Origin: a virus
Reading direction: 5' to 3' (one strand)
Length of the DNA stretch: 64,000 nt
IMG/VR virus record: IMGVR_UViG_3300005563_000030
Location: 32,001-96,000 of that record
The position numbers were made by a program, and so were the translations under genes. The notes beneath the pieces are model-generated. The model saw only the letters and a program-made list of their open reading frames with translations. It searched no databases and had not been told where the DNA came from. Below, one piece after another: positions 6,001-50,314 of the stretch (positions within the stretch are counted from its first letter, which is position 1; each line of letters begins with the position of its first letter).

Positions 6001-9000
6001 AGGTTCGTGAACGTCAAGACGTAATGCTCCAATAGGACTTAATGTAAGGTCATAAAACACCTTACCGTTTGGATCAGAGATAAACAGTTTATTATTTAAT
6101 TCTTCGTTATATTGTTTATTATAGTTTTTAGCTTCATCTGTAGGAAGTTTGTAATAGATTTCTCTATCCCCAATTAATAACTTCAGAGTAGACTCTTCTT
6201 TAGTAGACTCAATAAAGTTGGCATTAGCTGATTCTAAAGATCGTGCTTTTAATGAGTCAAGCATTTCATCTTTAGACTGTGTGGTCATCGTAGTTGGGTG
6301 AAGAGCTACTGGTTGAATAGTTCCATCTGGTTTCATAACCAGTCCAATATAACGACTATTTACATCTAGTAGTTTCTGGGCAGAAGAGGCTAGGTAGTCT
6401 AAAATCATTCTATCGTCAGCTCCCGGTGTTCTATAGAAATTAGCACCATATAAAGGAGTCATGAAGTCTGTTCTTTCTCTCACCATAGTATCTTCAACAA
6501 GACGTTTTGGTATAGAGATAATTACAGTAGTGTTGATAGGATTACCATTGGCTACAGGTAAAGAAACTGTATTATGCTTCACTTGACTATAGAAGCGAGG
6601 AGCTTGACCTCTTTCTAATAAGTCTAGTTCACCATATGTAATTACAGTGTCTACAAGTTCATTAAGTTCTTGTGGTGTAAGTGTGTATTCCTGAAGATTA
6701 TTATTTCTAAACTTCAGAGCTAAGTAATTTGTAAAAGCTACTTGTTTATTAAACTCATCTACGTCAGCCGCATGTTGAGCAGCAGGTTTACCTGTAAATT
6801 GTTGATACTGTTCAGGAGTAAGTCTGTCAATTGTAACAAAGTTATTTCCTACTTTGAATAGTAAGCGTTTAGGATAAGCAACCTTACCTATTTCTGCGCC
6901 ATTATGTGATACAGACAAGTCAATAGGAGCCCTTGACGCATACATTCCGGGGAATCCAGGTATTTGTGTGAATGATTGATCTGCTTGTTGTCTATTATAA
7001 GCCTCTTGATAATTTGGAGCAAGAGGTCTCACGGTAACACTAAGATTTTGTACTACTTGGTCTTTATTACCAGAGAATATAGCATCATTAAATGTACCTT
7101 TAAGGTCAGGAGCGACCCATACTTTACCCATAAAGTCACTGGTTCTAAACTCACTCTGTTCATTTACAGGTGGTGGAGTATTAGGTGTAACTGGTGGACC
7201 ACCAGCTTGGTTATCTGGTTGTTCTGGAGTATTTGGACTAGGTGTTTTCTGATTAGAAGTAGAGCCGACGCCTTCTAAGAAAGTCTTAGCTTGGTCAACT
7301 ACAGTATTAGGAACATAGAATTTCTTACCAGAAAGAGAAGTAACCATTGCATAGTCTTTTAAGTCTATGTTTGGATCTTCTAATTTTAGTTCGTCTATAG
7401 TTTGAAATCCTAATACTTGTAAACTGTCATCATCAAGTTTTGATTTACCTTCGATGGCAGCCATGAAATATCCTACTAGTCTAGCTCTTTCACTATCATC
7501 TTCAACAGGTTTATTTTCAACAAATCCTTCCTGTCCTTGTTGAACTGTTGGAGCTTGTGTTGCAGGATTTTGTTGTGTGTTTGTATTATTAGCTTGAGGC
7601 TGATTTGTTGTTTGTTGACCAGCATTTGCTTGTGAAGTATTGAAAGCAGCTTGTTGTTGAGCAGCTTGACCTTGTGTTTGGTCAGGAGCTAACTGAACAG
7701 GAGTTTCAATAGCTTCTTTTCTAGCTTTCTCAATAGCTTCAAATTGTTCTTTAAACCCACCTTTTGTAGTAAGACGAGCATATCTATCAATAGCTACGTT
7801 GTTTCTCATACCTAACTGCCAAATATCTTTAGCATATCCTTTCAATTCAGATACAAGATCAGGATGCATTAATTGATCTATGGTGATAGTGTCATCACCC
7901 ATATTCTTATAGAATGCTAATTTGTTTCTTCCTATTTCTGAATAGAAGTTAGCAACAAGCATATGGTATTTAGCATTTTGAAGCTTTTCATCCTTCTCAT
8001 TCAGAACATCTTCAATTTGGTCATGTTTAGCTTGTAATGCTTTTATTTTTTCCTTATTTGTTTCCGGTGTAGCCCTCAACTGAGAAGTTAGGAATTCAGC
8101 TTTTTCATATATTTCAGGAGAAATATTCTTATTCTGACTAAACTTACGTTTTATATCAGACATTTCTTCTTTAATAGACTTTACTTGGTCAGGTGTAAGC
8201 TGAGTTTTAGCTAATGAGTTTAGTATAGCTAATTGCTCTTTATACTTCTTTTTAAGCTCTTTTAGTCCATCTTCAGAAACCATCTGAATAGCTTCTTCTA
8301 CAGGAAAACCTATACCACCACGTAATGAAAGTTGCTCTCTAAGAGCTTTAGTACGATTAGCAGAATCTCTTGAAAGTGACATTGTACGAACTAAGTCTTC
8401 CTTAGCTTCTTCGTATGCAGCGTACTTTCCATTAATAATATCTTGTTTTTGTTTTTCTTCTTTGTTCTTGTAGTTACCAGTTCCTTTAAGTGTAAAAGGA
8501 TTAACGAATGTACGAGAAACTCTTTTATGTACATCATTAATGTACTCAGCATTTCTCACCATCGCATCTACATAGTCAGATACAGACTTCTTATTCTCAT
8601 CAGAAGCTGTAATGCCAAATGTTTTTTTGAACTCATCATTATCTAATTTTTTGAGTTCTTGTAATTGTTCCATACGTGTCTCAAACTTATTCTGTTTGAT
8701 ACCACTAATAACGAAACTTACAAACTGGTCATGCTTATAGTTTTTATAAGCAAATACATTACCATCAGCAGCAGCTTTTTGTAGGTCTTTCTGGATAGAA
8801 ATAGCCTCAACGCTTTCGCCATACTTGTTCTCAAATATACCACTAAGTGTATTAGTGTTAAGACCCTCTAATACATTATTAATTTGTTTTTTATAATCTG
8901 GATGTACATCTACGCCTCTTAGTTTGTAGTAAGCTCCTTCTACACCTTTATACATAGCACCACCAAGAAGACCATACACACTATTCTCCCATCCTTCACT

Positions 9001-43687: not shown

Positions 43688-44000
43688 TATTTCTCATTCT
43701 ATGAGGCACATCTCCACCACCACGTACTTCTTTTATGGCAGCAGCTTCTTTCTCACGAAGTTTTTCTACTACCTCGCACATAGCAAGGTATTCCTTCATG
43801 GTTTCACGTAGTGATTTTTGAATAGCCTCTTTAGTTTGTACTACAGCGTAATAAGCTCCACCATTTTTAGTTTTCATTAATTCCTTACGATCCTCTACTT
43901 CATTGTAGGGGTTATCTAGTAAGTATTGTTTCCAGCGAGCTAATTGTTCTTCTGCAAGTTCTAGCTCTGCTGATATGTATAAGTTTTTCTTAACAGCCAT
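43674..44000 (-). CDS. Hypothetical protein, candidate terminase small subunit
   Basis: Small helical ORF overlapping the terL start; ends in EVRGG. Confidence 0.4.
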   Translation of the reverse strand: MAVKKNLYISAELELAEEQLARWKQYLLDNPYNEVEDRKELMKTKNGGAYYAVVQTKEAIQKSLRETMKEYLAMCEVVEKLREKEAAAIKEVRGGGDVPHRMRNNAED

Positions 44001-44316
44001 ATGGTTTTACTTCAGTTACGCGATAATATTTAGTATTAAATTTCCTTACTTTGACTATTTTTCCATTATAGTAGTAGTCTTCTACCCAGTTTTTATTTTT
44101 CACAAAAAGTGGATCTGGTTGTTTTGGGAAGATTTGATAGTCTGTATTGATTTCATCTTTTTCAATTTCCATATCTTCTATATCTGAATAGAAGGAAGGA
44201 TCTTCAAGACGCATATCGTATTCGATAGCAAACTTCCCAATAGCCATCATAAACCCAGCATAGATAAAGTCATTATCCGTATAACTAGGTTTACACATTT
44301 CATGTATCTCTTCCAT
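43990..44316 (-). CDS. Hypothetical protein
   Basis: ORF track; overlaps the next gene start. Confidence 0.5.
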   Translation of the reverse strand: MEEIHEMCKPSYTDNDFIYAGFMMAIGKFAIEYDMRLEDPSFYSDIEDMEIEKDEINTDYQIFPKQPDPLFVKNKNWVEDYYYNGKIVKVRKFNTKYYRVTEVKPYGC

Positions 44317-44329
44317 TGGTTTTTATTTG

Positions 44330-44401
44330 AGCACATAGGAAGAATCGAACTTCCGCATAACTGTTTTGCAGACAGCGACCTTACCACTTGGCTATACGTG
44401 C
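44330..44401 (-). tRNA. trnC: tRNA-Cys(GCA)
   Basis: Cloverleaf; CTGT-CTGCAAA-ACAG anticodon arm; GTTCGATT T-loop. Confidence 0.85.
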
Positions 44402-44760
44402 TTATTTACGAATAGCTTTTTCTTAATAACATAATCGAATATCTTCTCATTTATAAATCCTGATAAGAAGGCTCTAGCTTCTCCATCATTTACATCCTTA
44501 TCTTCTAATATGTAATCTACTAAATGAGAAATTTCATGAGTTATTATATTTACATTTAAACTCTCTTCTGAAAAGAAGACATAGTAGGTATGAAAATTAT
44601 TTGGATTTATAGCCATTCCATGAAGATCATGGTCATCTTCTATATTAAATTCCCATTTCTCTCGCTTACTATATGAGTTTATCTTCTTACGAATGTCTTT
44701 GTCTATTATGACAATACACTTAAGTTGATAAACTTCTATCGGAATCACTAGTCTGAGCAT
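44392..44760 (-). CDS. Small zincin-like HExxH protein
   Basis: IITHEISH...GEARA; stop codon lies inside tRNA-Cys. Confidence 0.6.
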   Translation of the reverse strand: MLRLVIPIEVYQLKCIVIIDKDIRKKINSYSKREKWEFNIEDDHDLHGMAINPNNFHTYYVFFSEESLNVNIITHEISHLVDYILEDKDVNDGEARAFLSGFINEKIFDYVIKKKLFVNKHV

Positions 44761-44914
44761 CTTCTGATAAGTCTAAGATCATGAATTTATAACTTTCCAA
44801 AGGATACTTTGATTCTTCTTTAGGTTCACCAAATATAGCCTTTCTTGATTCAGGACTCATAAGTTCATAGAATAACCCCATAATTGCAGCCTGATCGTAT
44901 ATCTCTTCTTCCAT
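44720..44914 (-). CDS. Hypothetical protein
   Basis: ORF track. Confidence 0.4.
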   Translation of the reverse strand: MEEEIYDQAAIMGLFYELMSPESRKAIFGEPKEESKYPLESYKFMILDLSEDAQTSDSDRSLST

Positions 44915-44927
44915 GTAATTAGTTAAG

Positions 44928-45001
44928 TTGCGGGAGCGGGGATCGAACCCGCGTCATTTAGCTTATGAGACTAAGCTGGAACCTCTCCAGTCCACCCCGC
45001 A
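44928..45001 (-). tRNA. trnM: tRNA-Met(CAT)
   Basis: TTAGT-CTCATAA-GCTAA arm; GGTTCGATCC T-arm. Confidence 0.8.
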
Positions 45002-45005
45002 ATTT

Positions 45006-45218
45006 TTAATCTTCTAAATATTCTCTCCAAGTCTTCGGTTTGTATCTATCTATTGCTTCATCATTACGTTTCTTGAACTCCTCAGCAGAAATAATACCTA
45101 GCCGAAATCCCCATTCAACATTAGTGAGATACATATCTCTCATTAACATCTTCTCTTTGTTCTTTATGTGTGCTTGGGTCATCATAAAGAGTATATCGTA
45201 CTCCACTTTCTTTTCCAA
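45006..45218 (-). CDS. Hypothetical protein
   Basis: ORF track. Confidence 0.45.
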   Translation of the reverse strand: MEKKVEYDILFMMTQAHIKNKEKMLMRDMYLTNVEWGFRLGIISAEEFKKRNDEAIDRYKPKTWREYLED

Positions 45219-45363
45219 TTTCTTCTTGTAACATCATTTCTAAGAACCTCATTGCGTCATTGTACCTCGCAGTGAGTTGTTCAATAATATAATTCTCAGA
45301 CATACCTAAAGCTCTCCAATTATCAATTTCGTCTTGTAGGTAGTGGTTAACAATATTATTCAT
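45121..45363 (-). CDS. Hypothetical protein
   Basis: ORF track. Confidence 0.4.
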   Translation of the reverse strand: MNNIVNHYLQDEIDNWRALGMSENYIIEQLTARYNDAMRFLEMMLQEEIGKESGVRYTLYDDPSTHKEQREDVNERYVSH

Positions 45364-45577
45364 CTTCCTTAATATTATCTACTAACTCGTTCTCTAATTC
45401 ATCGCGATATTTCTCAAACTTCCTCAAAAGCTCTGTATCACTCCAGCCGTAACATCCTGTTTGTGGGCGAAGAATATGTACCATATGTTGCGCAATGGTA
45501 TACTGAGGAAACAATTCCACGATCTCTGCAAAGTTATGGAATATCTGTGACTTTGTCTGAATCTGTTTGTTGCTCAT
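45356..45577 (-). CDS. Hypothetical protein
   Basis: ORF track. Confidence 0.5.
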   Translation of the reverse strand: MSNKQIQTKSQIFHNFAEIVELFPQYTIAQHMVHILRPQTGCYGWSDTELLRKFEKYRDELENELVDNIKEDE

Positions 45578-45989
45578 TTTCTTGGTTTTTAAATGCGAAC
45601 CATTTAGGTTCCAGTGTTATATTGTTTTTTGTGTTGTACTCTTTTACGTTTGGTTTTGCACATCCGCATTCTGTTCCCGGATTGCAACATGATAATCCAC
45701 AATCTGATGATAATGATGATGTTTTTCTATTAATTGAACATCCACACATAACGCAATGCTCATCAATTCTGTTTGTTATATACCCATCACTAACTGCATT
45801 CGAGCTGCTGAACGGGCACGTCGAGCATATCAGTCTTCTCCTCACTATCTCCTGTTGTTCTTCCTCTGGTAACATCCCCAACTCGTTCTTCACTTGTGTT
45901 ATTGTCGCTTCCAAGATTGCTGGTGCGTTGCTCACTATTGTCGGCAGCAACGTCACGTACTCTACTAATCCTTTTAGTGTAATTTTCAT
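45534..45989 (-). CDS. Cys-rich putative zinc-binding protein
   Basis: RRLICSTCPF...HCVMCGC motifs. Confidence 0.55.
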   Translation of the reverse strand: MKITLKGLVEYVTLLPTIVSNAPAILEATITQVKNELGMLPEEEQQEIVRRRLICSTCPFSSSNAVSDGYITNRIDEHCVMCGCSINRKTSSLSSDCGLSCCNPGTECGCAKPNVKEYNTKNNITLEPKWFAFKNQENEQQTDSDKVTDIP

Positions 45990-46323
45990 AGAACTGTTTA
46001 GCTAATATATTTCTTTGTTTAAGAGCTTTTCTTAGCTTATCATAGTTTAATTCCAGAAGCAATTCAGTTGTTGATTGCTTATATCTGGTAGATTTTCGGA
46101 TATTCCTTATCTTTCTAATAAGAGTAATAATCATCTGGTCTACTTTACGCTTAGAAACTGTTATAGTTCCAATATGCTTAATAGAAACAGATGTATAGTC
46201 CATAGATGATAGAGCAGCTCTCACGCCAACCTTCCAGAAAAAAGCATTTACATCTTCTACAAGGTCAGGATCAAGGTTATTCTCTCTAGCTACCAACTTA
46301 GAAACTATATGAATATCCTTCAT
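45790..46323 (-). CDS. HU/IHF-like protein
   Basis: Helix-helix followed by VSIKHIGTITV strand pattern; crAss position near terminase. Confidence 0.5.
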   Translation of the reverse strand: MKDIHIVSKLVARENNLDPDLVEDVNAFFWKVGVRAALSSMDYTSVSIKHIGTITVSKRKVDQMIITLIRKIRNIRKSTRYKQSTTELLLELNYDKLRKALKQRNILAKQFYENYTKRISRVRDVAADNSEQRTSNLGSDNNTSEERVGDVTRGRTTGDSEEKTDMLDVPVQQLECS

Positions 46324-46664
46324 TAATTATTATCAATTTTAATAAGAACTCCCATAGTTGGAGTAAGCCCAAAGTCTAACTCTTTTCTAAGTGAGTATTC
46401 TTTACTGTCTACATTTCTAATCAGCATTCCAAATTTCTTCAACTTAGATAGAGTATTTTTAAGACTATCATCAGACTTTAGTATACCTGCATTTAGTATA
46501 AGGTCTTTAGTTTTTCTATTGATCTTATAAACCATAAAATATGCAAGTACTGTTAACTCTGTGTCTGAGAGCTTAACATTCATAAGTAAACAGAAGATAT
46601 TAATTAATACCTTAGCTTGTTCTACTTTACTATTGGTTTTCTTTTTTATCTTTACTAGTTGCAT
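46323..46664 (-). CDS. Winged-HTH (RepL-like) protein
   Basis: LSDTELTVLAY...SLKNTLSKLKKFGML pattern; ATG 46664 follows the TATATTTG promoter at 46673-46680. Confidence 0.5.
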   Translation of the reverse strand: MQLVKIKKKTNSKVEQAKVLINIFCLLMNVKLSDTELTVLAYFMVYKINRKTKDLILNAGILKSDDSLKNTLSKLKKFGMLIRNVDSKEYSLRKELDFGLTPTMGVLIKIDNN

Positions 46665-46875
46665 ATTCAGTACAAATATAGAGATATTATTGCAATTTAC
46701 CAAATTTATTTTATCTCCATCCCTTCTTCTCCAGAACTTTCTATTAGCTGCTCTCGCGAACAACGAATAGTAGGTGAGTCACTGAGCGTTACACTTCTGC
46801 TGCTCCGCGAAGTACGAAGCTACGAAAAATTTCTGACATTTTCATCAATTTCGTAAACTATTTTTTAAAATAAAT

Positions 46876-46898
46876 AAAAAAGCCCCAATTAAGGGGCT
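46876..46898 (-). terminator. Terminator closing tRNA operon 3
   Basis: AGCCCC-TTAATT-GGGGCT followed by TTTTT. Confidence 0.8.
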
Positions 46899-46902
46899 AT
46901 TG

Positions 46903-46974
46903 CACGGGATGATGGTCTCGAACCACCGACACAGGTTTTGGAGACTAGCATTTTACCAACTAAACTAATCCCGT
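46903..46974 (-). tRNA. trnW: tRNA-Trp(CCA), anticodon stem with two mismatches
   Basis: CTAGT-CTCCAAA-ACCTG; good acceptor, D and T arms. Confidence 0.7.
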
Positions 46975-46978
46975 AGGT

Positions 46979-47070
46979 AGCCTGCGTAATAAGATACTTT
47001 TCGCGTAGTCCCAGGTTTACGCTTGAAGGGTCAGGTAAATCCCACATATCTCCTATACTATTCTCAGGCT
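46979..47070 (-). ncRNA. Rod-shaped ~92-nt non-tRNA RNA inside tRNA operon 3
   Basis: AGCCUG/CAGGCU closing stem, AGAUA/UAUCU, UGUGG/CUACG and UUUAC/GUAAA helices separated by bulges. Confidence 0.45.
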
Positions 47071-47071
47071 C

Positions 47072-47142
47072 TGGGTGAAGTGCAGGATCGAACTGCTTCT
47101 CCAGCTTCACATGCTAGCGCTTTTCCAGTAAGCTATCTTCAC
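47072..47142 (-). tRNA. trnH: tRNA-His(GTG)
   Basis: CTAGC-ATGTGAA-GCTGG arm. Confidence 0.75.
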
Positions 47143-47144
47143 AG

Positions 47145-47215
47145 ATGCTCGTGATCGAATCGGACGACCTTCTCCGAGGTCAAAACTCGGTGTGATACCA
47201 ATATACCAACGAGCA
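47145..47215 (-). tRNA. trnQ: tRNA-Gln(TTG)
   Basis: CCGAG-TTTTGAC-CTCGG arm; atypical T-arm. Confidence 0.7.
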
Positions 47216-47223
47216 TTATATAG

Positions 47224-47296
47224 TGGGGTTCTCTGGTTACGATCCAGATCCTCCAGTTTTTCAGACTGGTGCTTCTACCAAGTTAGCTTGAACTCC
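47224..47296 (-). tRNA. trnF: tRNA-Phe(GAA)
   Basis: CCAGT-CTGAAAA-ACTGG arm. Confidence 0.85.
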
Positions 47297-47301
47297 AAAT
47301 G

Positions 47302-47375
47302 AGCCTGTGGTCGGAGTTGAACCGACAACCTTTCCCTTACAAGGGGACTGCTCCGCCAATTGAGCTACAGCAGGC
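47302..47375 (-). tRNA. trnT: tRNA-Thr(TGT)
   Basis: GTCCC-CTTGTAA-GGGAA arm. Confidence 0.8.
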
Positions 47376-47379
47376 ATTG

Positions 47380-47478
47380 TGCTAATGGGGTACGACTTGA
47401 ACGACAAGCGGAGGTTAATCCCTGATTCCGCGCCGGATAGACAATCCGGTATGTCTGCCAATTTCACCACCCATTAGT
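47380..47478 (-). tRNA. Atypical tRNA-like RNA: GTC (Asp) anticodon, long variable arm, 8-bp acceptor stem
   Basis: CCGGA-TTGTCTA-TCCGG arm; CTAATGGG/CCCATTAG acceptor; GGTGAAATTGGCAGAC D region; GCGGA...TCCGC variable arm. Confidence 0.6.
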
Positions 47479-47481
47479 GTG

Positions 47482-47553
47482 CGGGAACGGAAGGGGTCGA
47501 ACCTTCAACCTACCGGTTAACAGCCGGTTGCTCTACCATTGAGCTACATTCCC
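47482..47553 (-). tRNA. trnN: tRNA-Asn(GTT)
   Basis: ACCGG-CTGTTAA-CCGGT arm. Confidence 0.9.
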
Positions 47554-47605
47554 TGGTCGGCTCCGATTTTTTATACAGAACGTTGCCGAAGTAAACTGTT
47601 GATCG

Positions 47606-47681
47606 CCGACTATCACGGATTTGAACCGAGGATCTCCTCTTAGACAGAGAGGCAGGGACGACCAGACTCCCCTAATAGTCG
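47606..47681 (-). tRNA. trnD: tRNA-Asp(GTC)
   Basis: CCTCT-CTGTCTA-AGAGG arm (U at position 37). Confidence 0.8.
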
Positions 47682-47722
47682 AGGTGAAGGTTCCTTCCTG
47701 GAGTATACCTACAACTATGCAG

Positions 47723-47797
47723 TCAGGGTAGCTGGATTTGAACCAGCGAACACGTGCTTCCAAGGCACGCCCATATAGCCATCTGTGGAACACCCTG
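47723..47797 (-). tRNA. trnP: tRNA-Pro(TGG)
   Basis: CGTGC-CTTGGAA-GCACG arm. Confidence 0.85.
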
Positions 47798-47802
47798 ATA
47801 AT

Positions 47803-47832
47803 AAAAAACCCCCGGTGAAAACCGAGGGAAAC
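47803..47832 (-). terminator. Attenuator terminator of tRNA operon 3
   Basis: CCCTCGGT-TTTC-ACCGGGGG followed by TTTTTT; 5' arm also complementary to leader GATGAGGGAAC. Confidence 0.8.
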
Positions 47833-47858
47833 TTTCAATTATGACAAATTTTCTTGAA

Positions 47859-47945
47859 TTACTTATTTTGGCATAATGTTCCCTCATCGAGATCTTGTTG
47901 ATCCGGTGTGAAATTATTAAACGTATTATGCCAATTGTTAATCAT
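47859..47945 (-). CDS. Leader peptide 3, MINNWHNTFNNFTPDQQDLDEGTLCQNK
   Basis: Translated by hand; lies between promoter TATCTTTG (47950-47957) and the attenuator. Confidence 0.75.
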   Translation of the reverse strand: MINNWHNTFNNFTPDQQDLDEGTLCQNK

Positions 47946-47949
47946 AAAA

Positions 47950-47980
47950 CAAAGATAAGTAAAATATTTGAAACTACCAA
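47950..47980 (-). promoter_or_regulatory. Bacteroidota promoter for tRNA operon 3
   Basis: TTTG about 20 nt upstream of TATCTTTG. Confidence 0.75.
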
Positions 47981-47996
47981 ATATTCTTAAAAGAAG

Positions 47997-48080
47997 TCGA
48001 TGCAGAGAGATTTGAACTCCCATAGCCGAATGGCGACAGTTTTACAGACTGCTGATTTCAACCCACTTACCATTACATCG
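47997..48080 (-). tRNA. trnY: tRNA-Tyr(GTA)
   Basis: GCAGT-CTGTAAA-ACTGT arm; long variable arm. Confidence 0.8.
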
Positions 48081-48149
48081 AGATAGCTGTCTATTCCAGC
48101 TTGTCAAACCCTTTTTATTTCATACTACGTCGCCGAGATACACGACCTG

Positions 48150-48238
48150 CGGAAAGAAGAGGAACCGACCCCCACCCGATTTAACGAGACCTAGTTTTCA
48201 AGACTAGTCGGCGCTCCAATGCACCTGCTTTTCTTTCC
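48150..48238 (-). tRNA. trnS: tRNA-Ser(TGA)
   Basis: CTAGT-CTTGAAA-ACTAG arm; long variable arm; GGA...TCCG acceptor; atypical T-loop. Confidence 0.75.
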
Positions 48239-48242
48239 AGAG

Positions 48243-48328
48243 CGGAGAACAGTGGCCCTGATCCACATACGTTCGATGACGTACCACCTCTTTAGCAGAG
48301 AGGGCATACCCTAGTATGTCTATTCTCC
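48243..48328 (-). tRNA. trnS: tRNA-Ser(GCT)
   Basis: CCTCT-CTGCTAA-AGAGG arm; long variable arm; atypical T-loop. Confidence 0.75.
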
Positions 48329-48333
48329 AAATG

Positions 48334-48407
48334 TACTCCTAGTCAGATTTGAACTGACACTTGACAGATTTTAAGTCTGTTGACTCTCCCTGTTGGTCTA
48401 TAGGAGC
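48334..48407 (-). tRNA. trnL: tRNA-Leu(TAA), short variable arm
   Basis: ACAGA-CTTAAAA-TCTGT arm. Confidence 0.8.
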
Positions 48408-48483
48408 TGGTAGCTACGGTGAGATTTGAACTCACACTAAATAGTTTCTAAGACTATTGCCTCTCCCATTGGGCTACGTAGCC
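48408..48483 (-). tRNA. trnL: tRNA-Leu(TAG), short variable arm, encoded CCA
   Basis: ATAGT-CTTAGAA-ACTAT arm. Confidence 0.8.
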
Positions 48484-48490
48484 ATAAAAT

Positions 48491-48522
48491 AAAAAACCCC
48501 CACTTATGAATAAGCAGGGGGT
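48491..48522 (-). terminator. Attenuator terminator of tRNA operon 2
   Basis: ACCCCCTGCTTA-TTCA-TAAGTGGGGGT followed by TTTTT; 5' arm complementary to leader GCAGGGGG. Confidence 0.8.
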
Positions 48523-48547
48523 AAACTAAAAACGGAAAAAAGTATCT

Positions 48548-48631
48548 TTATATTCCGACAATAAGCCCCCCTGCCACAGGATAACTGAGACTAGATAAAT
48601 AGGAGAGTAAATATTGCTTCACGAATTTCAT
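48548..48631 (-). CDS. Leader peptide 2, MKFVKQYLLSYLSSLSYPVAGGLIVGI
   Basis: Translated by hand; lies between promoter TATCTTCG (48636-48643) and the attenuator. Confidence 0.75.
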   Translation of the reverse strand: MKFVKQYLLSYLSSLSYPVAGGLIVGI

Positions 48632-48635
48632 AACA

Positions 48636-48658
48636 CGAAGATAGGAAAACTTTTTCAA
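48636..48658 (-). promoter_or_regulatory. Bacteroidota-type promoter for tRNA operon 2
   Basis: TATCTTCG (one mismatch to TAnnTTTG) with upstream TTG. Confidence 0.6.
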
Positions 48659-48801
48659 TTTTCCAAATTTTCATTTATTGAATAAGTACGATCACATAAA
48701 TCGCAGTAATAAACTGGTCCTAGATTTTCTCCGAACACTCCAATCTCATCTATAATTATGAATTGTTCATTACATTCAGGACATCTGTTTTCTGATTTCA
48801 T
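48655..48801 (-). CDS. Small zinc-ribbon protein (48 aa)
   Basis: MKSENRCPECNE...YYCDLCD; true start follows tRNA-Ala. Confidence 0.55.
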   Translation of the reverse strand: MKSENRCPECNEQFIIIDEIGVFGENLGPVYYCDLCDRTYSINENLEN

Positions 48802-48803
48802 AG

Positions 48804-48873
48804 TGGACACAGTGGGAATCGAACCCAAAAGTTCTCCTTGCAAGGGAGACTGCCTACCGTTGGCATCTGGCCC
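48804..48873 (-). tRNA. trnA: tRNA-Ala(TGC)
   Basis: TCTCC-CTTGCAA-GGAGA arm; G3:U70. Confidence 0.75.
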
Positions 48874-48878
48874 AGAAG

Positions 48879-48951
48879 TAGGAAGTCTGAGAATCGAACT
48901 CAGGAGTCCACTTTGTAAGAGTGGCATATTAAACCTCTGTATGAACTTCCT
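48879..48951 (-). tRNA. trnV: tRNA-Val(TAC)
   Basis: CCACT-CTTACAA-AGTGG arm. Confidence 0.8.
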
Positions 48952-48954
48952 ATG

Positions 48955-49027
48955 TCGCTGAGGGAAGAGTCGAACTTCCAGTCTTACACGTATCAGGCGT
49001 CTGCGTTAACCATTACGCTACTCAGCG
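48955..49027 (-). tRNA. trnI: tRNA-Ile(GAT)
   Basis: ACGC-CTGATAC-GTGT arm. Confidence 0.8.
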
Positions 49028-49029
49028 GG

Positions 49030-49101
49030 TTGGCTCTAAGGGGGTTGAACCCTTATCCTTCTCGTTATGAGCGAGCTGCTCCACCTTTGAGCTAAGAGCC
49101 G
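49030..49101 (-). tRNA. tRNA with CAT anticodon, probably Ile2 (lysidine)
   Basis: CTCG-CTCATAA-CGAG arm; Ile2-like CTTAGCTCA 5' region; next to tRNA-Ile; leader 1 contains an ATA codon. Confidence 0.7.
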
Positions 49102-49106
49102 ATATG

Positions 49107-49178
49107 TACTCTCGAAGGGTTTCGATCCCTCTTCTACACCTTGAAAGGGTGTCATCCTAGCCACTAGACGACGAGAGC
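49107..49178 (-). tRNA. trnE: tRNA-Glu(TTC)
   Basis: ACACC-CTTTCAA-GGTGT arm. Confidence 0.85.
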
Positions 49179-49227
49179 TGGTGTACAGACTATCACTGAC
49201 CTTGGTAACTGACTTTCACAGATTTTG

Positions 49228-49298
49228 TGCGCTACTGGGGAGTCGAACCCCACCCCTCTGATTGGAAGTCAGATAGACTACCGAAATCCTTGTAACGC
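49228..49298 (-). tRNA. trnG: tRNA-Gly(TCC)
   Basis: TCTGA-CTTCCAA-TCAGA arm. Confidence 0.8.
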
Positions 49299-49305
49299 AT
49301 ATAAG

Positions 49306-49378
49306 AAGAGCTGGAGGGATTCAAACCCCCGACGTTCTGTTTAGAAAACAGACATTCTGTTCCCTGAATTACAGCTCT
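49306..49378 (-). tRNA. trnR: tRNA-Arg(TCT)
   Basis: TCTGT-TTTCTAA-ACAGA arm. Confidence 0.75.
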
Positions 49379-49379
49379 G

Positions 49380-49453
49380 AGGACTAGGAGCGAGTCGAAC
49401 GCTCATGTTCCCGCTTCGTAGGCGGGAGCTCTATCCAGTTAAGCTACCAGTCC
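49380..49453 (-). tRNA. trnR: tRNA-Arg(ACG)
   Basis: CCCGC-CTACGAA-GCGGG arm. Confidence 0.85.
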
Positions 49454-49462
49454 TTATTTATG

Positions 49463-49533
49463 TACCCCCGCACGGTAACGATCCGTGTTCTACTGGTTAA
49501 AAGCCAGTAGCTTCACCTTAAAGCTTCGAGGGT
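49463..49533 (-). tRNA. trnK: tRNA-Lys(TTT)
   Basis: ACTGG-CTTTTAA-CCAGT arm. Confidence 0.8.
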
Positions 49534-49535
49534 AT

Positions 49536-49576
49536 AAAAACCAAAACCCCCAAGCTTCTTTAAGGCTCAGGGGTTC
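49536..49576 (-). terminator. Attenuator terminator of tRNA operon 1
   Basis: CCCCTGAGC...GCTTGGGGG followed by TTTTGGTTTTT; 5' arm GAACCCCTGAGCC complementary to leader GGCTCAGGTGGTTC. Confidence 0.8.
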
Positions 49577-49604
49577 GATGTTATGACACACATTAATTAA
49601 GTCA

Positions 49605-49682
49605 TTAGCAAATAGAACCACCTGAGCCACATTTGACAATGCGCTCTGCTCCTCTACCCGCTATAATGACTAATAAACTCAT
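49605..49682 (-). CDS. Leader peptide 1, MSLLVIIAGRGAERIVKCGSGGSIC
   Basis: Translated by hand; lies between promoter TATATTTG (49700-49707) and the attenuator. Confidence 0.75.
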   Translation of the reverse strand: MSLLVIIAGRGAERIVKCGSGGSIC

Positions 49683-49699
49683 TTCTTTAAATTATAATA

Positions 49700-49724
49700 C
49701 AAATATACGAAAACTTTTTTACAA
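49700..49724 (-). promoter_or_regulatory. Bacteroidota promoter for tRNA operon 1
   Basis: TATATTTG with upstream TTG. Confidence 0.7.
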
Positions 49725-50117
49725 TTCCAAATCTTCTTCATCACCTTCTATACTTTCGTCTTCAGGAATGTCATCTTCATAATCCAAAGGTGTGCAATCC
49801 ATAATCTGTACACCCATTTGTTCCATATACAATTCCATGAAATCTGAGAAACCTGCTTTTACTATTAAAGAACTCTCAGCCTTTCTGAAATGAATTGTGA
49901 CATGATCCTTTTCTTTAGCTCTATTAAAGTGATGAATATCTTTTAAATCAAATACTACAGGACCATATTCATGCACAATATCCATCATAATCATGCTATC
50001 TTCTGGACCTTCATCTCCATTAATGAGACGGTTTAATTCTGCTTCTTCCCGGTTAGCTTGACTATTACGAGGAGCAAGCTCCGACCATCTCGCTAACATT
50101 TTTACAATTGTACTCAT
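49719..50117 (-). CDS. Hypothetical protein with acidic C-terminus
   Basis: ORF track. Confidence 0.55.
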   Translation of the reverse strand: MSTIVKMLARWSELAPRNSQANREEAELNRLINGDEGPEDSMIMMDIVHEYGPVVFDLKDIHHFNRAKEKDHVTIHFRKAESSLIVKAGFSDFMELYMEQMGVQIMDCTPLDYEDDIPEDESIEGDEEDLEL

Positions 50118-50314
50118 TTTTCTAAGTTTAATATTTTTGAAAGATCACCATCTGTTTTCTCTATAATCTCAATTAATGTATTAATATTTGATGAAGAAAT
50201 AGGCTCTTTCTTTCCATTAAAGTAATCGAGGTAATCCTCTCTAGTAAACGCACACCATTTATGGGTGTATATATTATAGTGGAATAACCACTTATAAAGG
50301 TTTGTATTATTCAT
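50114..50314 (-). CDS. Hypothetical protein (start uncertain; shorter than ORF-track call)
   Basis: WLFHYNIYTHKWCAF core; the upstream part of the ORF looks non-coding. Confidence 0.45.
   Translation of the reverse strand: MNNTNLYKWLFHYNIYTHKWCAFTREDYLDYFNGKKEPISSSNINTLIEIIEKTDGDLSKILNLEK

Follow-up and report, generated by a model that had tools for sequence, protein, structure and literature searches.

What decides whether the tRNA genes of a crAss-like phage are transcribed, when each block of them lies behind a short ORF and a terminator? The window, that is, the whole 64,000-nucleotide stretch of phage DNA analysed here, carries three units on its minus strand, each running from a promoter through a leader ORF and a GC hairpin with U-tract to a tRNA block. 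This threefold layout had been described in a first-pass annotation, and motif, ORF, hairpin and tRNA analyses re-found it. All three promoters have the form TTTG-N20-TAnnTT[T/C]G. There is a single promoter-like element per tRNA block, which lies upstream of the terminator, and the tRNAs would therefore be made only via read-through. We give a probability of roughly 0.8 to the reading that each of the three phage tRNA operons is preceded by a transcription attenuator of the ribosome-mediated (leader-peptide) kind; a block would then probably be made only when its own codons are decoded slowly by ribosomes.

Promoters were located by computed motif and spacing, leader ORFs from the ORF list, comparison and folding, terminators by hairpin search and folding, and tRNAs with ARAGORN at default settings, Rfam and relaxed ARAGORN. 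All positions given here are on the minus strand. Promoter 1 (49700..49731) has TTTG at 49731-49728, a 20-nt spacer and TATATTTG at 49707-49700, and the ATG lies 17 nt downstream of this box. Leader ORF 1 (L1; 49605..49682) encodes 25 aa plus a stop, MSLLVIIAGRGAERIVKCGSGGSIC. Its sensor run of 13 codons, VIIAGRGAERIVK, occupies codons 5-17 (49670-49632), and the antiterminator strand GGCUCAGGUGG lies at about 49627-49615. Terminator 1 (49545..49575; AACCCCTGAGCC...GCTTGGGGGTT, then a T-run) ends 11 nt ahead of tRNA-Lys. Block 1 (48804..49533) holds tRNAs Lys ttt, Arg acg, Arg tct, Gly tcc, Glu ttc, CAT, Ile gat, Val tac and Ala tgc, the last being a weak call made by Rfam (38.4 bits) and by ARAGORN at the 80% threshold only.

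In unit 2, promoter 2 (48636..48667) consists of TTTG at 48667-48664, a 20-nt spacer and TATCTTCG at 48643-48636. The ATG is 4 nt downstream of the box, and a leaderless mRNA is therefore predicted. Leader ORF 2 (L2; 48548..48631; 27 aa plus stop, MKFVKQYLLSYLSSLSYPVAGGLIVGI) has the 11-codon sensor run YLLSYLSSLSY at codons 7-17 (48613-48581) and the antiterminator strand GCAGGGGGG at about 48575-48567. Terminator 2 (48497..48520; CCCCTGCTTATTCATAAGTGGGGG, then TTTTTT) ends 13 nt ahead of tRNA-Leu, the first gene of block 2 (47996..48483; Leu tag, Leu taa, Ser gct, Ser tga, Tyr gta). Ser tga (48238-48151) is again a weak call, made by relaxed ARAGORN only, with a sub-threshold tRNA-Sec-like match of 31 bits in Rfam; it and Ala tgc are the two window tRNAs that required Rfam or relaxed ARAGORN.

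Promoter 3 (47950..47981) has TTTG at 47981-47978, a 20-nt spacer and TATCTTTG at 47957-47950, and here too an ATG 4 nt downstream of the box leads to the prediction of a leaderless mRNA. Leader ORF 3 (L3; 47859..47945; 28 aa plus stop, MINNWHNTFNNFTPDQQDLDEGTLCQNK) contains the 16-codon sensor run NNWHNTFNNFTPDQQD at codons 3-18 (47939-47892) and an antiterminator strand at about 47893-47881. Terminator 3 (47809..47828; CCCTCGGTTTTCACCGGGGG, then TTTTTT) ends 11 nt ahead of tRNA-Pro. Block 3 (46902..47797) comprises Pro tgg, Asp gtc, Asn gtt, Thr tgt, Phe gaa, Gln ttg, His gtg and Trp cca; a 96-nt class-II-like 'Asp gtc' call stands between Asn and Thr, and a 98-nt stretch to which no tRNA was assigned separates His from Trp. 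After tRNA-Trp the hairpin search returned a terminator-like hairpin that closes the array, AGCCCCTTAATTGGGGCT followed by TTTTT (46881..46898).

The codon runs had been claimed to contain only, and all of, the amino acids whose tRNAs follow. A recount agreed on the run lengths and on 7+3+8 = 18 non-overlapping amino acids, and the three runs do match their own blocks; the exception is the CAT tRNA (Met or Ile2) of block 1, which has no leader counterpart unless it reads the ATA codon of L1. In block 1 the match also depends on the weakly scoring Ala tRNA. Among 20,000 random same-length peptides drawn from the window's own ORFs, and with run length plus coverage as criterion, none equalled L1, L2 or L3 when relaxed tRNA calls were used (p = 5e-5 each). 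When the tRNA set was restricted to default ARAGORN calls, the loss of Ala raised the L1 value to p = 0.028.

The comparative test that the first-pass annotation had proposed was positive, leaders tracking the tRNA content of their operons. It covered 14 non-redundant contigs with 28 leader/operon pairs between them, namely the window and 13 related ones (L001, L009, L012, Leptolyngbya phage Lbo-JY46 (L008), L025, L028, L037, L038, L043, L083, L085, L088 and L093). The cultured Cellulophaga phage phi4:1 has the layout three times as well (each p = 5e-5), which brings the architecture to 31 leaders in 15 phages, whose TerL proteins are as little as 28% identical. Over the 28 pairs the longest in-set runs summed to 315 codons, versus 112±18 (maximum 198) for permuted pairings (0/20,000), and default ARAGORN calls alone gave 229 versus 96±15 (0/20,000). 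A sensor zone delimited by structure only, as the part of the leader that precedes the antiterminator strand, contained 173 of the 177 operon amino acids, and 345 of its 463 residues (75%) belonged to the leader's own operon set, versus 154±21 for permuted pairings (0/20,000) and versus 83 of 238 residues (35%) in the rest of the ORF. These permutation p-values overstate independence, since the 28 pairs share phylogeny; the independent support is a handful of rearrangement events plus phi4:1. In L012 and Lbo-JY46, Asn, Asp and Cys tRNAs are found in operon 1 and N, D and C in leader 1, with N and D absent from leader 3, while Arg(acg) is in operon 3 and leader 3 has gained a CGT codon. Other tRNA partitions with concordant leaders occur in L037, L038, L043, L093, L025 and L088.

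The co-variation of leader and operon extends to codon boxes. A strict-wobble cognate tRNA is encoded in the same operon for 255 of the 315 run codons; a further 57 depend on U34 reading a whole four-codon box, and for 3 the operon offers no tRNA. Where Arg(tct) is the sole Arg tRNA of an operon, its leader writes Arg as AGR; where Arg(acg) is, the leader has CGY (one terminal AGG excepted); and where Leu(tag) is the sole Leu tRNA, the Leu codons are CTN only. Across the sensor zones there were also 91 out-of-set amino-acid types, many of the residues lying, by eye, in the first 2-5 codons. Several of the tRNAs that complete a match are weak calls (relaxed ARAGORN only or Rfam only). L028 has a run of only 3 (p = 0.10), leader 1 of L001 has kept V and A with no Val or Ala tRNA found, and leader 2 of Lbo-JY46 has kept Y and AGT codons with no Tyr or Ser(gct) tRNA detected.

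The same attenuator hardware might instead gauge general translation capacity or infection time, through ribosome availability or transcription-translation coupling, with the codon match as a by-product of preferred codons read by phage tRNAs. The structures would respond to any ribosome slowing, and since phage tRNAs cover 18-20 amino acids overall, some codons of any phage ORF will be ones that they read. However, the leaders of one genome use non-overlapping sets that each match their own block and not the others, the codon boxes follow the isoacceptor present, the match drops after the sensor zone and permuted pairings never equal it, which leaves this explanation little chance of being right. 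We regard it as very improbable that the attenuators answer host amino-acid starvation, as in classic biosynthetic operons, with the tRNA blocks co-regulated otherwise, for example as a buffer for uncharged tRNA. A leader ribosome senses charged tRNA, as in trp and his, and lack of an amino acid is to this sensor the same as lack of a tRNA; but amino-acid shortage is not relieved by more tRNA, and isoacceptor tracking (Arg CGN versus AGR, Leu CTN versus TTR) is purposeless if the amino acid alone matters. The first of these points also bears on the attenuation reading, against which it counts that extra tRNA would not help wherever the amino acid, and not the tRNA, is short.

Conservation is frame-specific. 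The run sum was 323 in the ORF frame, versus 71 and 77 in the other two, and all 28 leaders are open in the ORF frame, versus 27 and 66 internal stops in the others. An AUG opens every run, and in 15 of the 28 leaders it stands at 4-7 nt from the -7 box. These properties, together with a stop codon within reach of the antiterminator strand (strand 2), argue against ribosome-free sensing, in which anticodons of charged or uncharged tRNAs would pair directly with leader RNA triplets, as in a multi-specifier T-box, and shift the balance between terminator and antiterminator. The match does hold at the codon/anticodon level, and T-box elements control termination by codon-anticodon pairing; yet Rfam gave no match to a T-box, another known riboswitch or a leader family at window positions 44000-50200 (E<=1), and we hold this mechanism to be extremely improbable.

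The 3' part of the leader ORF had also been said to be complementary to the 5' arm of its terminator. The duplexes were indeed stronger than dinucleotide shuffles in L1 (-20.8 versus a mean of -7.5 kcal/mol, p = 0.002), L2 (-20.4 versus -12.1, p = 0.004) and L3 (-9.6 versus -5.1, p = 0.03), as they were at p<=0.05 in 22 of the 28 leaders (Fisher 6e-24), with no advantage over shuffles in the other 6. Antiterminators paired better with their own terminator arms than with permuted ones (-379 versus -232±13 kcal/mol; 0/2,000 permutations). Predicted minimum-energy folds have a 1:2 hairpin inside the ORF together with the terminator. The antiterminator strand lies after the codon run and before the stop codon, a position in which it would be masked by a ribosome at the stop and freed by one stalled mid-run. 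When a ribosome was represented in the folding by masking the middle of the run, all 28 leaders were predicted to pair 6 nt or more of the terminator 5' arm with the ORF 3' part; masking at the stop codon left such pairing in 2 of 28. A ribosome halted at one of the last ~3 run codons would cover part of strand 2. Counting against the attenuation reading, naked RNA up to the terminator loop already takes the antiterminator fold in 18 of the 28 leaders. The alternative that nothing is regulated, the hairpins terminating transcription constitutively but leakily or serving RNA processing and the small ORFs being open by chance in AT-rich spacers, is disfavoured by the controls and has a close to negligible probability: hairpins and small ORFs are indeed frequent (the 3-kb array stretch is overlapped by 54 ORFs of at least 20 aa), but the architecture recurs across distant phages, its signal is frame-specific, the permutation and random-peptide controls were passed and antiterminator co-varies with terminator.

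The logic of ribosome-mediated attenuation put forward in the first-pass annotation is thus supported, every sequence-level prediction that could be computed having been borne out. A Bacteroidota-type promoter would drive each unit, with transcription of units 2 and 3 starting at or a few bases from the leader AUG, if the box position relative to the start is taken from the relevant part of PMC9723704. A ribosome would translate the leader while polymerase moves ahead. With fast decoding of all run codons, it would cover strand 2; after its passage strand 2 would be recaptured by the run region (1:2), and the GC hairpin with U-tract (3:4) would form and stop transcription ~11-13 nt before the first tRNA. 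A ribosome waiting at any run codon for a charged cognate tRNA would leave strand 2 free to pair with the terminator 5' arm (2:3), and polymerase would read into the block, which would supply tRNAs for the very codons of the run. The predicted outcome is negative feedback, the block being made until phage or host tRNAs decode the test ORF fast enough. Leader translation, the polarity of the switch in vivo and its physiological trigger are here putative, as are the polymerase and its response to hairpin/U-tract terminators; the same promoter type in a phage with a cyanobacterium as recorded host counts in this respect against the attenuation reading. A link to host tRNA-cleaving defences such as PrrC is conjecture.

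Among enterobacterial multivalent leaders, thrL senses Thr and Ile and the ilvGMEDA leader Ile, Val and Leu; trpL, hisL, pheL and leuL are further attenuators. The pheL leader is mentioned in PMC3082878. The phage units resemble these systems in promoter, short ORF with regulatory codons, 1:2, 2:3 and 3:4 pairings and intrinsic terminator before the genes, in the predicted preference for the antiterminator upon a stall at regulatory codons and, as in the thrL and ilv leaders, in several amino acids per leader. Unlike them, they control tRNA genes and not enzymes, and the product therefore feeds back directly on the sensor. Between 3 and 13 amino acids are represented in a phage leader, each by one to a few codons and none by a long single-codon run; the codon boxes agree with the isoacceptors of the operon, a leaderless form is predicted for many of the mRNAs, and the element is phage-borne and matches no Rfam leader family. 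T-box riboswitches work without a ribosome, sense uncharged tRNA with one specifier codon and control aaRS and amino-acid genes. They share with the predicted phage switch that tRNA status, read via codon-anticodon recognition, sets the choice between terminator and antiterminator, whereas the phage leaders are predicted to be ribosome-dependent, have many codons and lack an Rfam T-box match.

In the literature searched, we found no description of leader-peptide attenuation for tRNA genes. For Flavobacteriia, the part of PMC9723704 considered here gives a sigma-A -7 box TAnnTTTG at -12 to -5 and reports clues to attenuation upstream of amino-acid operons in Flavobacterium psychrophilum, which makes the mechanism plausible in such hosts. 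Promoter type and host phylum are those implied for the phage units, whereas the cases in this source precede bacterial amino-acid biosynthesis operons. The trn operon of Anabaena sp. PCC 7120 is an inducible long tRNA array whose control is ascribed to the repressor TrcR in the available text of PMC8421152 and PMC10272220. As is predicted for the phage units, this accessory array is silent until translation is impaired, so that tRNA supply answers translational stress; unlike them, it has, as described there, TrcR in place of a codon-matched ORF, and a word search of that text returned neither 'attenuat' nor 'leader'. Passages in PMC10264068 and PMC11555353 treat phage tRNAs as a counter to the depletion or cleavage of host tRNAs; these passages cover phage tRNA function and not, as here, transcriptional control. 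Such depletion or cleavage would give the phage a motive for on-demand resupply of particular tRNAs.

The virus record to which the window belongs measures 125,101 bp, and the window itself encodes a crAss-type terminase, portal and major head protein together with very long ORFs. ARAGORN predicted 23 tRNAs in the window, all on the minus strand, and the 20 above-threshold tRNA matches of the whole record all fell within window positions 44330-49533. One extra tRNA was found with Rfam at 48873-48804 and called Ala(tgc) by ARAGORN at an 80% threshold (hereafter relaxed calls), and a weak tRNA-Sec-like Rfam match at 48238-48151 was called Ser(tga) at the same setting. The array (49533-46902) consists of three blocks that are divided by two spacers, with a third spacer preceding the whole array. 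All three spacers have the same order, namely a TTTG-N20-TAnnTT[T/C]G promoter-like element, an ATG ORF, and a GC-rich hairpin with a T-run. The leader ORFs (leader 1, 49682-49605; leader 2, 48631-48548; leader 3, 47945-47859; minus strand) comprise 25, 27 and 28 codons, and each has its own start and stop between the promoter-like element and the terminator. The terminator-like hairpins and their T-runs end 11-13 nt upstream of the first tRNA with no promoter in between. The threefold layout of promoter, leader ORF, terminator and tRNAs that was proposed in the first-pass annotation was thereby borne out by tRNA, ORF, hairpin and motif calls. According to ARAGORN and Rfam, the genes under control are tRNA genes, and not genes for amino-acid biosynthesis, amino-acid transport or aminoacyl-tRNA synthetases.

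Each leader contains a sensor run, a stretch of 13, 11 and 16 codons, respectively, that matches the tRNAs behind it. Run 1, VIIAGRGAERIVK, precedes tRNAs for Lys, Arg, Arg, Gly, Glu, a tRNA with anticodon CAT, Ile, Val and Ala; run 2, YLLSYLSSLSY, precedes Leu, Leu, Ser, Ser and Tyr; and run 3, NNWHNTFNNFTPDQQD, precedes Pro, Asp, Asn, Thr, Phe, Gln, His and Trp. These runs had been described as holding only, and all of, the amino acids of the tRNAs that follow, and they read exactly so, with the reservation that the CAT tRNA has a leader match only if it is a tRNA-Ile2 reading the ATA codon of the leader. As a chance test we drew, for each leader, 20,000 random peptides of the same length from the window's own long ORFs. 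None of them equalled the run length and coverage of any of the three leaders with relaxed tRNA calls; with default ARAGORN calls alone leader 1 fell to p = 0.028, because Ala is then missed. A strict-wobble cognate is present in the own block for 33 of the 40 run codons, and the other seven (GTC, GGT, CTC, TCC, TCT) need a U34 tRNA that reads a whole four-codon box. Where both isoacceptors are present, the leaders sample both Arg, both Leu and both Ser boxes.

Additional relaxed matches were accepted only if their anticodon type occurs among the default calls, a rule that is blind to the leaders. Under this rule 'Tyr ata', 'Pyl cta' and other matches were not accepted, and a relaxed 'Leu caa' call on the leader-1 hairpin (49599-49671, minus strand) was treated as a false positive; relaxed tRNA finders can thus mis-annotate such leaders. 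Alternative reading frames were also rejected: a 36-aa form with a TTG start at 48658 and an ORF at 48674-48591 would start ahead of the -7 box (48643-48636) or straddle it, and a 54-aa form of leader 3 starts inside tRNA-Tyr.

Several other features of the array were recorded. Block 3 additionally carries a class-II-like tRNA-like gene of 96 nt (47381-47476, minus strand) with a long variable arm and anticodon GTC, next to a normal tRNA-Asp, and a similar counterpart lies at the same place, between Asn and Thr, in two related contigs (L001 and L009). The same block holds a 98-nt stretch without a tRNA call between tRNA-His and tRNA-Trp (46975-47072, minus strand), for which the sole Rfam match was at chance level (SpF41, E 0.35) and which may represent another processed small RNA. 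Directly after the last tRNA of block 1 starts a 48-aa ORF with two CxxC pairs (MKSENRCPEC...CDLCDR...; 48655-48801, minus strand), the 3' end of which overlaps the unit 2 promoter; a PHROG match to this ORF was not found. Two further tRNAs are found among protein genes, away from the gated blocks (44927-45001 and 44329-44401, minus strand; ARAGORN/Rfam). One, in which the anticodon loop is aberrant (ARAGORN '???'; Rfam 35.4 bits), occupies the place of tRNA-Met(cat) in L001 and L009, and the other is a tRNA-Cys that overlaps ORF 44392-44760 at its end. The window's sensor runs lack just two amino acids, Met and Cys. The tRNAs of block 2 (47996-48483, minus strand) are exactly those for Leu, Ser and Tyr, which are the bacterial tRNAs with a long variable arm, and this grouping is retained in the window, L001, L009, L012, L083 and L085.

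Relatives were found through the terminase. A blastn search of the 3-kb stretch against GenBank phages gave single-tRNA matches only, nowhere covering at least 80% of the query, and a search of viral contigs with the upstream 132-aa protein found no relative. The terminase search yielded one IMG/VR relative (L001, 64% identity), and tblastn with the terminase found Leptolyngbya phage Lbo-JY46 (PP438436.1; 44.6%) and Cellulophaga phages (∼28%). An alignment of three terminases was then used to draw in further viral loci and 80 metagenome loci, 13 of which have tRNA arrays upstream of TerL according to ARAGORN. Leader-terminator units were present in 14 non-redundant contigs, amounting to 28 leader/operon pairs. 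Two loci were dropped as duplicates on the basis of tRNA layout and coordinates rather than computed identity (L017 = L001; L011 = L009), two others (L026, L027) were dropped as partial arrays at contig ends in which no leader-terminator unit was found, and operon 1 of L083 and L085 was left unscored, being outside or at the edge of the DNA examined. The records of three TerL relatives (L010, L013, L014) gave no tRNA match and that of a fourth (L015) gave one, and these four did not contribute to the comparison. A degenerate 21-nt pattern derived from leader 3 hit five stretches, one of them in the L001 contig; the other four have no adjoining tRNA and were treated as chance.

The partition of tRNAs among operons varies by lineage, and the leaders vary accordingly. 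In L012 and Lbo-JY46, Asn, Asp and Cys tRNAs lie within operon 1 and leader 1 reads ...VIDNIRNAEGCKKA... or ...IDIRNIDIVCAEGVNKC..., with Cys thus found in both operon and leader; leader 3 of the same two phages has lost N and D and gained a CGT codon, and tRNA-Arg(acg) is in operon 3. In L037 the leader MIQNIHSYRPQQLLQ..., with R codon CGC and L codons CTA/CTC only, precedes Pro, Gln, His, Arg(acg), Leu(tag) and Tyr, and the leader MKRNNWFNNAAAFTTTDCGKG..., with R codon AGA, precedes Ala, Gly, Asp, Asn, Trp, Thr, Arg(tct), Phe and Cys. Further arrangements are found in L093, where ...LQHYQPACLYLY... precedes Ala, Gln, His, Leu(tag), Pro, Tyr and Cys, in L025, where ...TNHTTNQPNPQD... precedes Pro, Asp, Asn, Thr, Gln and His, and in L088, where ...HPQPQH... 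precedes Pro, Gln and His. Homing-endonuclease-like ORFs lie inside some tRNA operons (L038:2526-2969, L085:6717-7101, Lbo-JY46 6925-7752), and the leaders still carry codons for the tRNAs beyond these insertions.

Three leader-tRNA units also occur in Cellulophaga phage phi4:1 (NC_021788.1), the terminase of which is ∼28% identical to that of the window. Here QRLHLQELEQP precedes Pro, Glu, Gln, His, Leu, Leu and Arg(acg); TKTGITVIDKTKGARA precedes Ala, Lys, Ile, Gly, CAT, Asp, Thr, Val and Arg(tct); and YNNSNWSFSY precedes Tyr, Ser, Ser, Asn, Trp and Phe (p = 5e-5 for every unit when compared with random phi4:1 peptides). Two of these leader ORFs (87989-88108 and 90117-90218) are annotated as hypothetical proteins gp075 and gp076, and leaders of this type may therefore already be in databases as orphan small proteins.

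For the family statistics the sensor zone was set from RNA structure alone, from codon 2 to the point where the strand with the best pairing to the terminator 5' arm begins, because choosing the run by its match was to be avoided. Of the 177 (leader, operon amino acid) pairs, 173 are found within these zones. Own-set residues account for 345 of 463 zone positions, whereas the remainder of the ORF has 83 of 238. When leaders and operons were re-paired by permutation, the in-set zone residues numbered 154±21 (maximum 257) and none of 20,000 permutations reached 345, which upholds the expectation of the first-pass annotation that leader codons follow operon content across relatives. The longest in-set runs sum to 315 with relaxed calls versus 112±18 for permuted pairings (maximum 198; 0/20,000), and to 229 versus 96±15 with default ARAGORN calls alone (0/20,000). 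Against random peptides, p = 5e-5 was obtained for 25 of the 28 leaders with relaxed calls (the others being L038-2, p = 0.006; L008-1 of Lbo-JY46, 0.052; and L028-1, 0.099) and for 16 of the 28 with default calls. Because the sequences are related, none of these p-values, those from permuted pairings included, is a probability of independent events. The independent support is provided by the distinct tRNA relocations among the relatives and by phi4:1. Across the family 255 run codons have a strict-wobble cognate, 57 an extended one only, and three have none. Conservation is specific to the reading frame: the run sum is 323 in the ORF frame versus 71 and 77 in the other two, and the 28 leaders contain no internal stops in the ORF frame versus 27 and 66 in the other frames.

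We then considered the RNA structures into which these leaders could fold. Minimum-energy folds of the 28 leaders mostly consist of a long hairpin within the ORF (1:2), formed by the run codons and the 3' part of the ORF, plus the terminator (3:4). When the nascent RNA was folded in silico as far as the terminator loop, with a ribosome mask that extended to 13 nt beyond a mid-run codon, at least 6 nt of the terminator 5' arm paired with a strand in the 3' part of the ORF in 28 of 28 leaders, and with the mask at the stop codon such pairing was kept in 2 of 28 only. This antiterminator strand starts between -3 and +21 nt from the end of the run, and its end falls in the interval from 37 nt upstream to 7 nt downstream of the stop codon's first base. 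The complementarity between the leader 3' part and the terminator 5' arm that had been reported for the window extends to the family: the duplex outperformed 500 dinucleotide-shuffled controls (p ≤ 0.05) for 22 of the 28 leaders (Fisher 6e-24). Covariation of the two elements is seen as well, the own arms giving -379 kcal/mol versus -232±13 kcal/mol for permuted arms (0/2,000). Running against a clean picture, 18 of the 28 naked RNAs folded to the terminator loop already sequester the arm.

Passages in PMC7366714 and PMC9723704 give the Bacteroidota sigma-A promoter consensus as a -7 box TAnnTTTG with TTTG at -33. A -7 box is present upstream of 22 of the 28 leaders, in 19 of these 22 with TTTG 19-20 nt farther upstream; the promoter-like elements thus fit this consensus and are regarded as putative promoters. 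The six leaders without a -7 box are preceded either by another short gene or by a lone tRNA-Glu with its own promoter. In 15 leaders the ATG starts 4-7 nt past the -7 box. Since the sigma-A box of Flavobacterium spans -12 to -5 (PMC9723704), a gap of 4 nt would place the A of the ATG at +1, and many leaders are therefore predicted to be leaderless mRNAs. TTTG-N20-TAnnTTTG, typical of Bacteroidota, precedes all three leaders of Lbo-JY46 (PP438436.1 5190-9540, minus strand); the record names a cyanobacterial host (Leptolyngbya boryana), which puts into question the polymerase or sigma factor that would use it.

The lone tRNA-Glu genes show a different arrangement. They have their own TTTG/TAnnTTTG promoter and a Glu-rich ORF of 20-24 codons (e.g. 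...QEQEIEGEEL...; L037:5515-5643, L038:3890-4016 and L043:660-785, all plus strand). The last codons and the stop of this ORF fall inside the tRNA gene with no terminator between, and in the predicted fold its GAGGAG part pairs with the tRNA-Glu 5' acceptor strand. Such an arrangement may represent another kind of control, coupled to translation and acting on the folding or processing of the tRNA. The leader that follows downstream of the lone tRNA-Glu in L043 and L038 is without a Glu codon in its sensor zone.

Taken together, the units contain an ORF, clustered codons, a terminator before the genes, and a predicted, mutually exclusive antiterminator that a ribosome would mask. Classic ribosome-mediated attenuation, the logic put forward in the first-pass annotation, is the best-supported reading and agrees with every test that could be computed from sequence. 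A ribosome stalled in the run would leave strand 2 free to capture the terminator 5' arm, and transcription would enter the tRNA block; smooth translation would leave strand 2 masked or recaptured, and the terminator would form. Such a loop would be self-limiting, since the tRNAs that decode the run are the products of the controlled genes. This reading presupposes that the leaders are translated, that stalling favours read-through in vivo, and that the polymerase responds to the hairpins as proposed; candidate triggers are host tRNA scarcity, codon-usage mismatch and tRNA-cleaving defences. We assign a probability of roughly 0.35 to the full proposal that an entire clade of crAss-like phages, among them cultured phages of Cellulophaga and Leptolyngbya, operates a multiplexed tRNA homeostat in which failed decoding of an own-codon test ORF opens each operon codon by codon, and which could replenish exactly the tRNAs that a particular host lacks or a tRNA-cleaving defence has just destroyed.

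Leaders of the trp/his/thr/ilv type are ribosome-mediated attenuators, and the phage units share their hardware. Unlike these leaders, the phage units control tRNA genes, sample 3-13 amino acids per leader, show matching at the isoacceptor level, and have predicted leaderless starts. To our knowledge, known attenuators all control genes for amino-acid biosynthesis, transport or aminoacyl-tRNA synthetases, and tRNA genes as the controlled class are what sets the phage element apart as new among leader-peptide attenuators. Neither a T-box riboswitch nor any Rfam leader family (His, Trp, Thr, Leu etc.) was among the 28 cmscan matches in window 44000-50200 at E ≤ 1, which comprised tRNAs and weak chance hits. 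A full-text search of the main text of open-access papers returned no account of leader-peptide or attenuator control of tRNA genes. The nearest physiological parallel found is the trn operon of Anabaena, which responds to translational stress by induction and is ascribed to control by the repressor TrcR (PMC8421152, PMC10272220), as opposed to the attenuators proposed for the phages; the words 'attenuat' and 'leader' occur in neither paper.

The layout is present in the cultured pairs Cellulophaga baltica/phi4:1 and Leptolyngbya boryana/Lbo-JY46, and the idea is therefore directly testable. Accounts of how tRNA transcription is regulated usually invoke growth-rate or stringent control, and we know of little on how phage tRNA arrays are regulated. 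If the proposal is true, these would be the first tRNA genes that are feedback-controlled through the decoding of their own codons, and the first leader peptides to serve as a readable inventory of the genes they precede. The leaders would also be compact, modular parts for sensing charged-tRNA levels, and would allow tRNA identity and operon boundaries to be predicted from sequence only, for example a CAT tRNA as Ile2, or which tRNAs lie before or after a gate. For the phages, a codon-matched attenuator would link decoding speed directly to tRNA synthesis in a self-correcting manner. It would explain the grouping of phage tRNAs, and would bear on the debate over whether their role is codon compensation or counter-defence.
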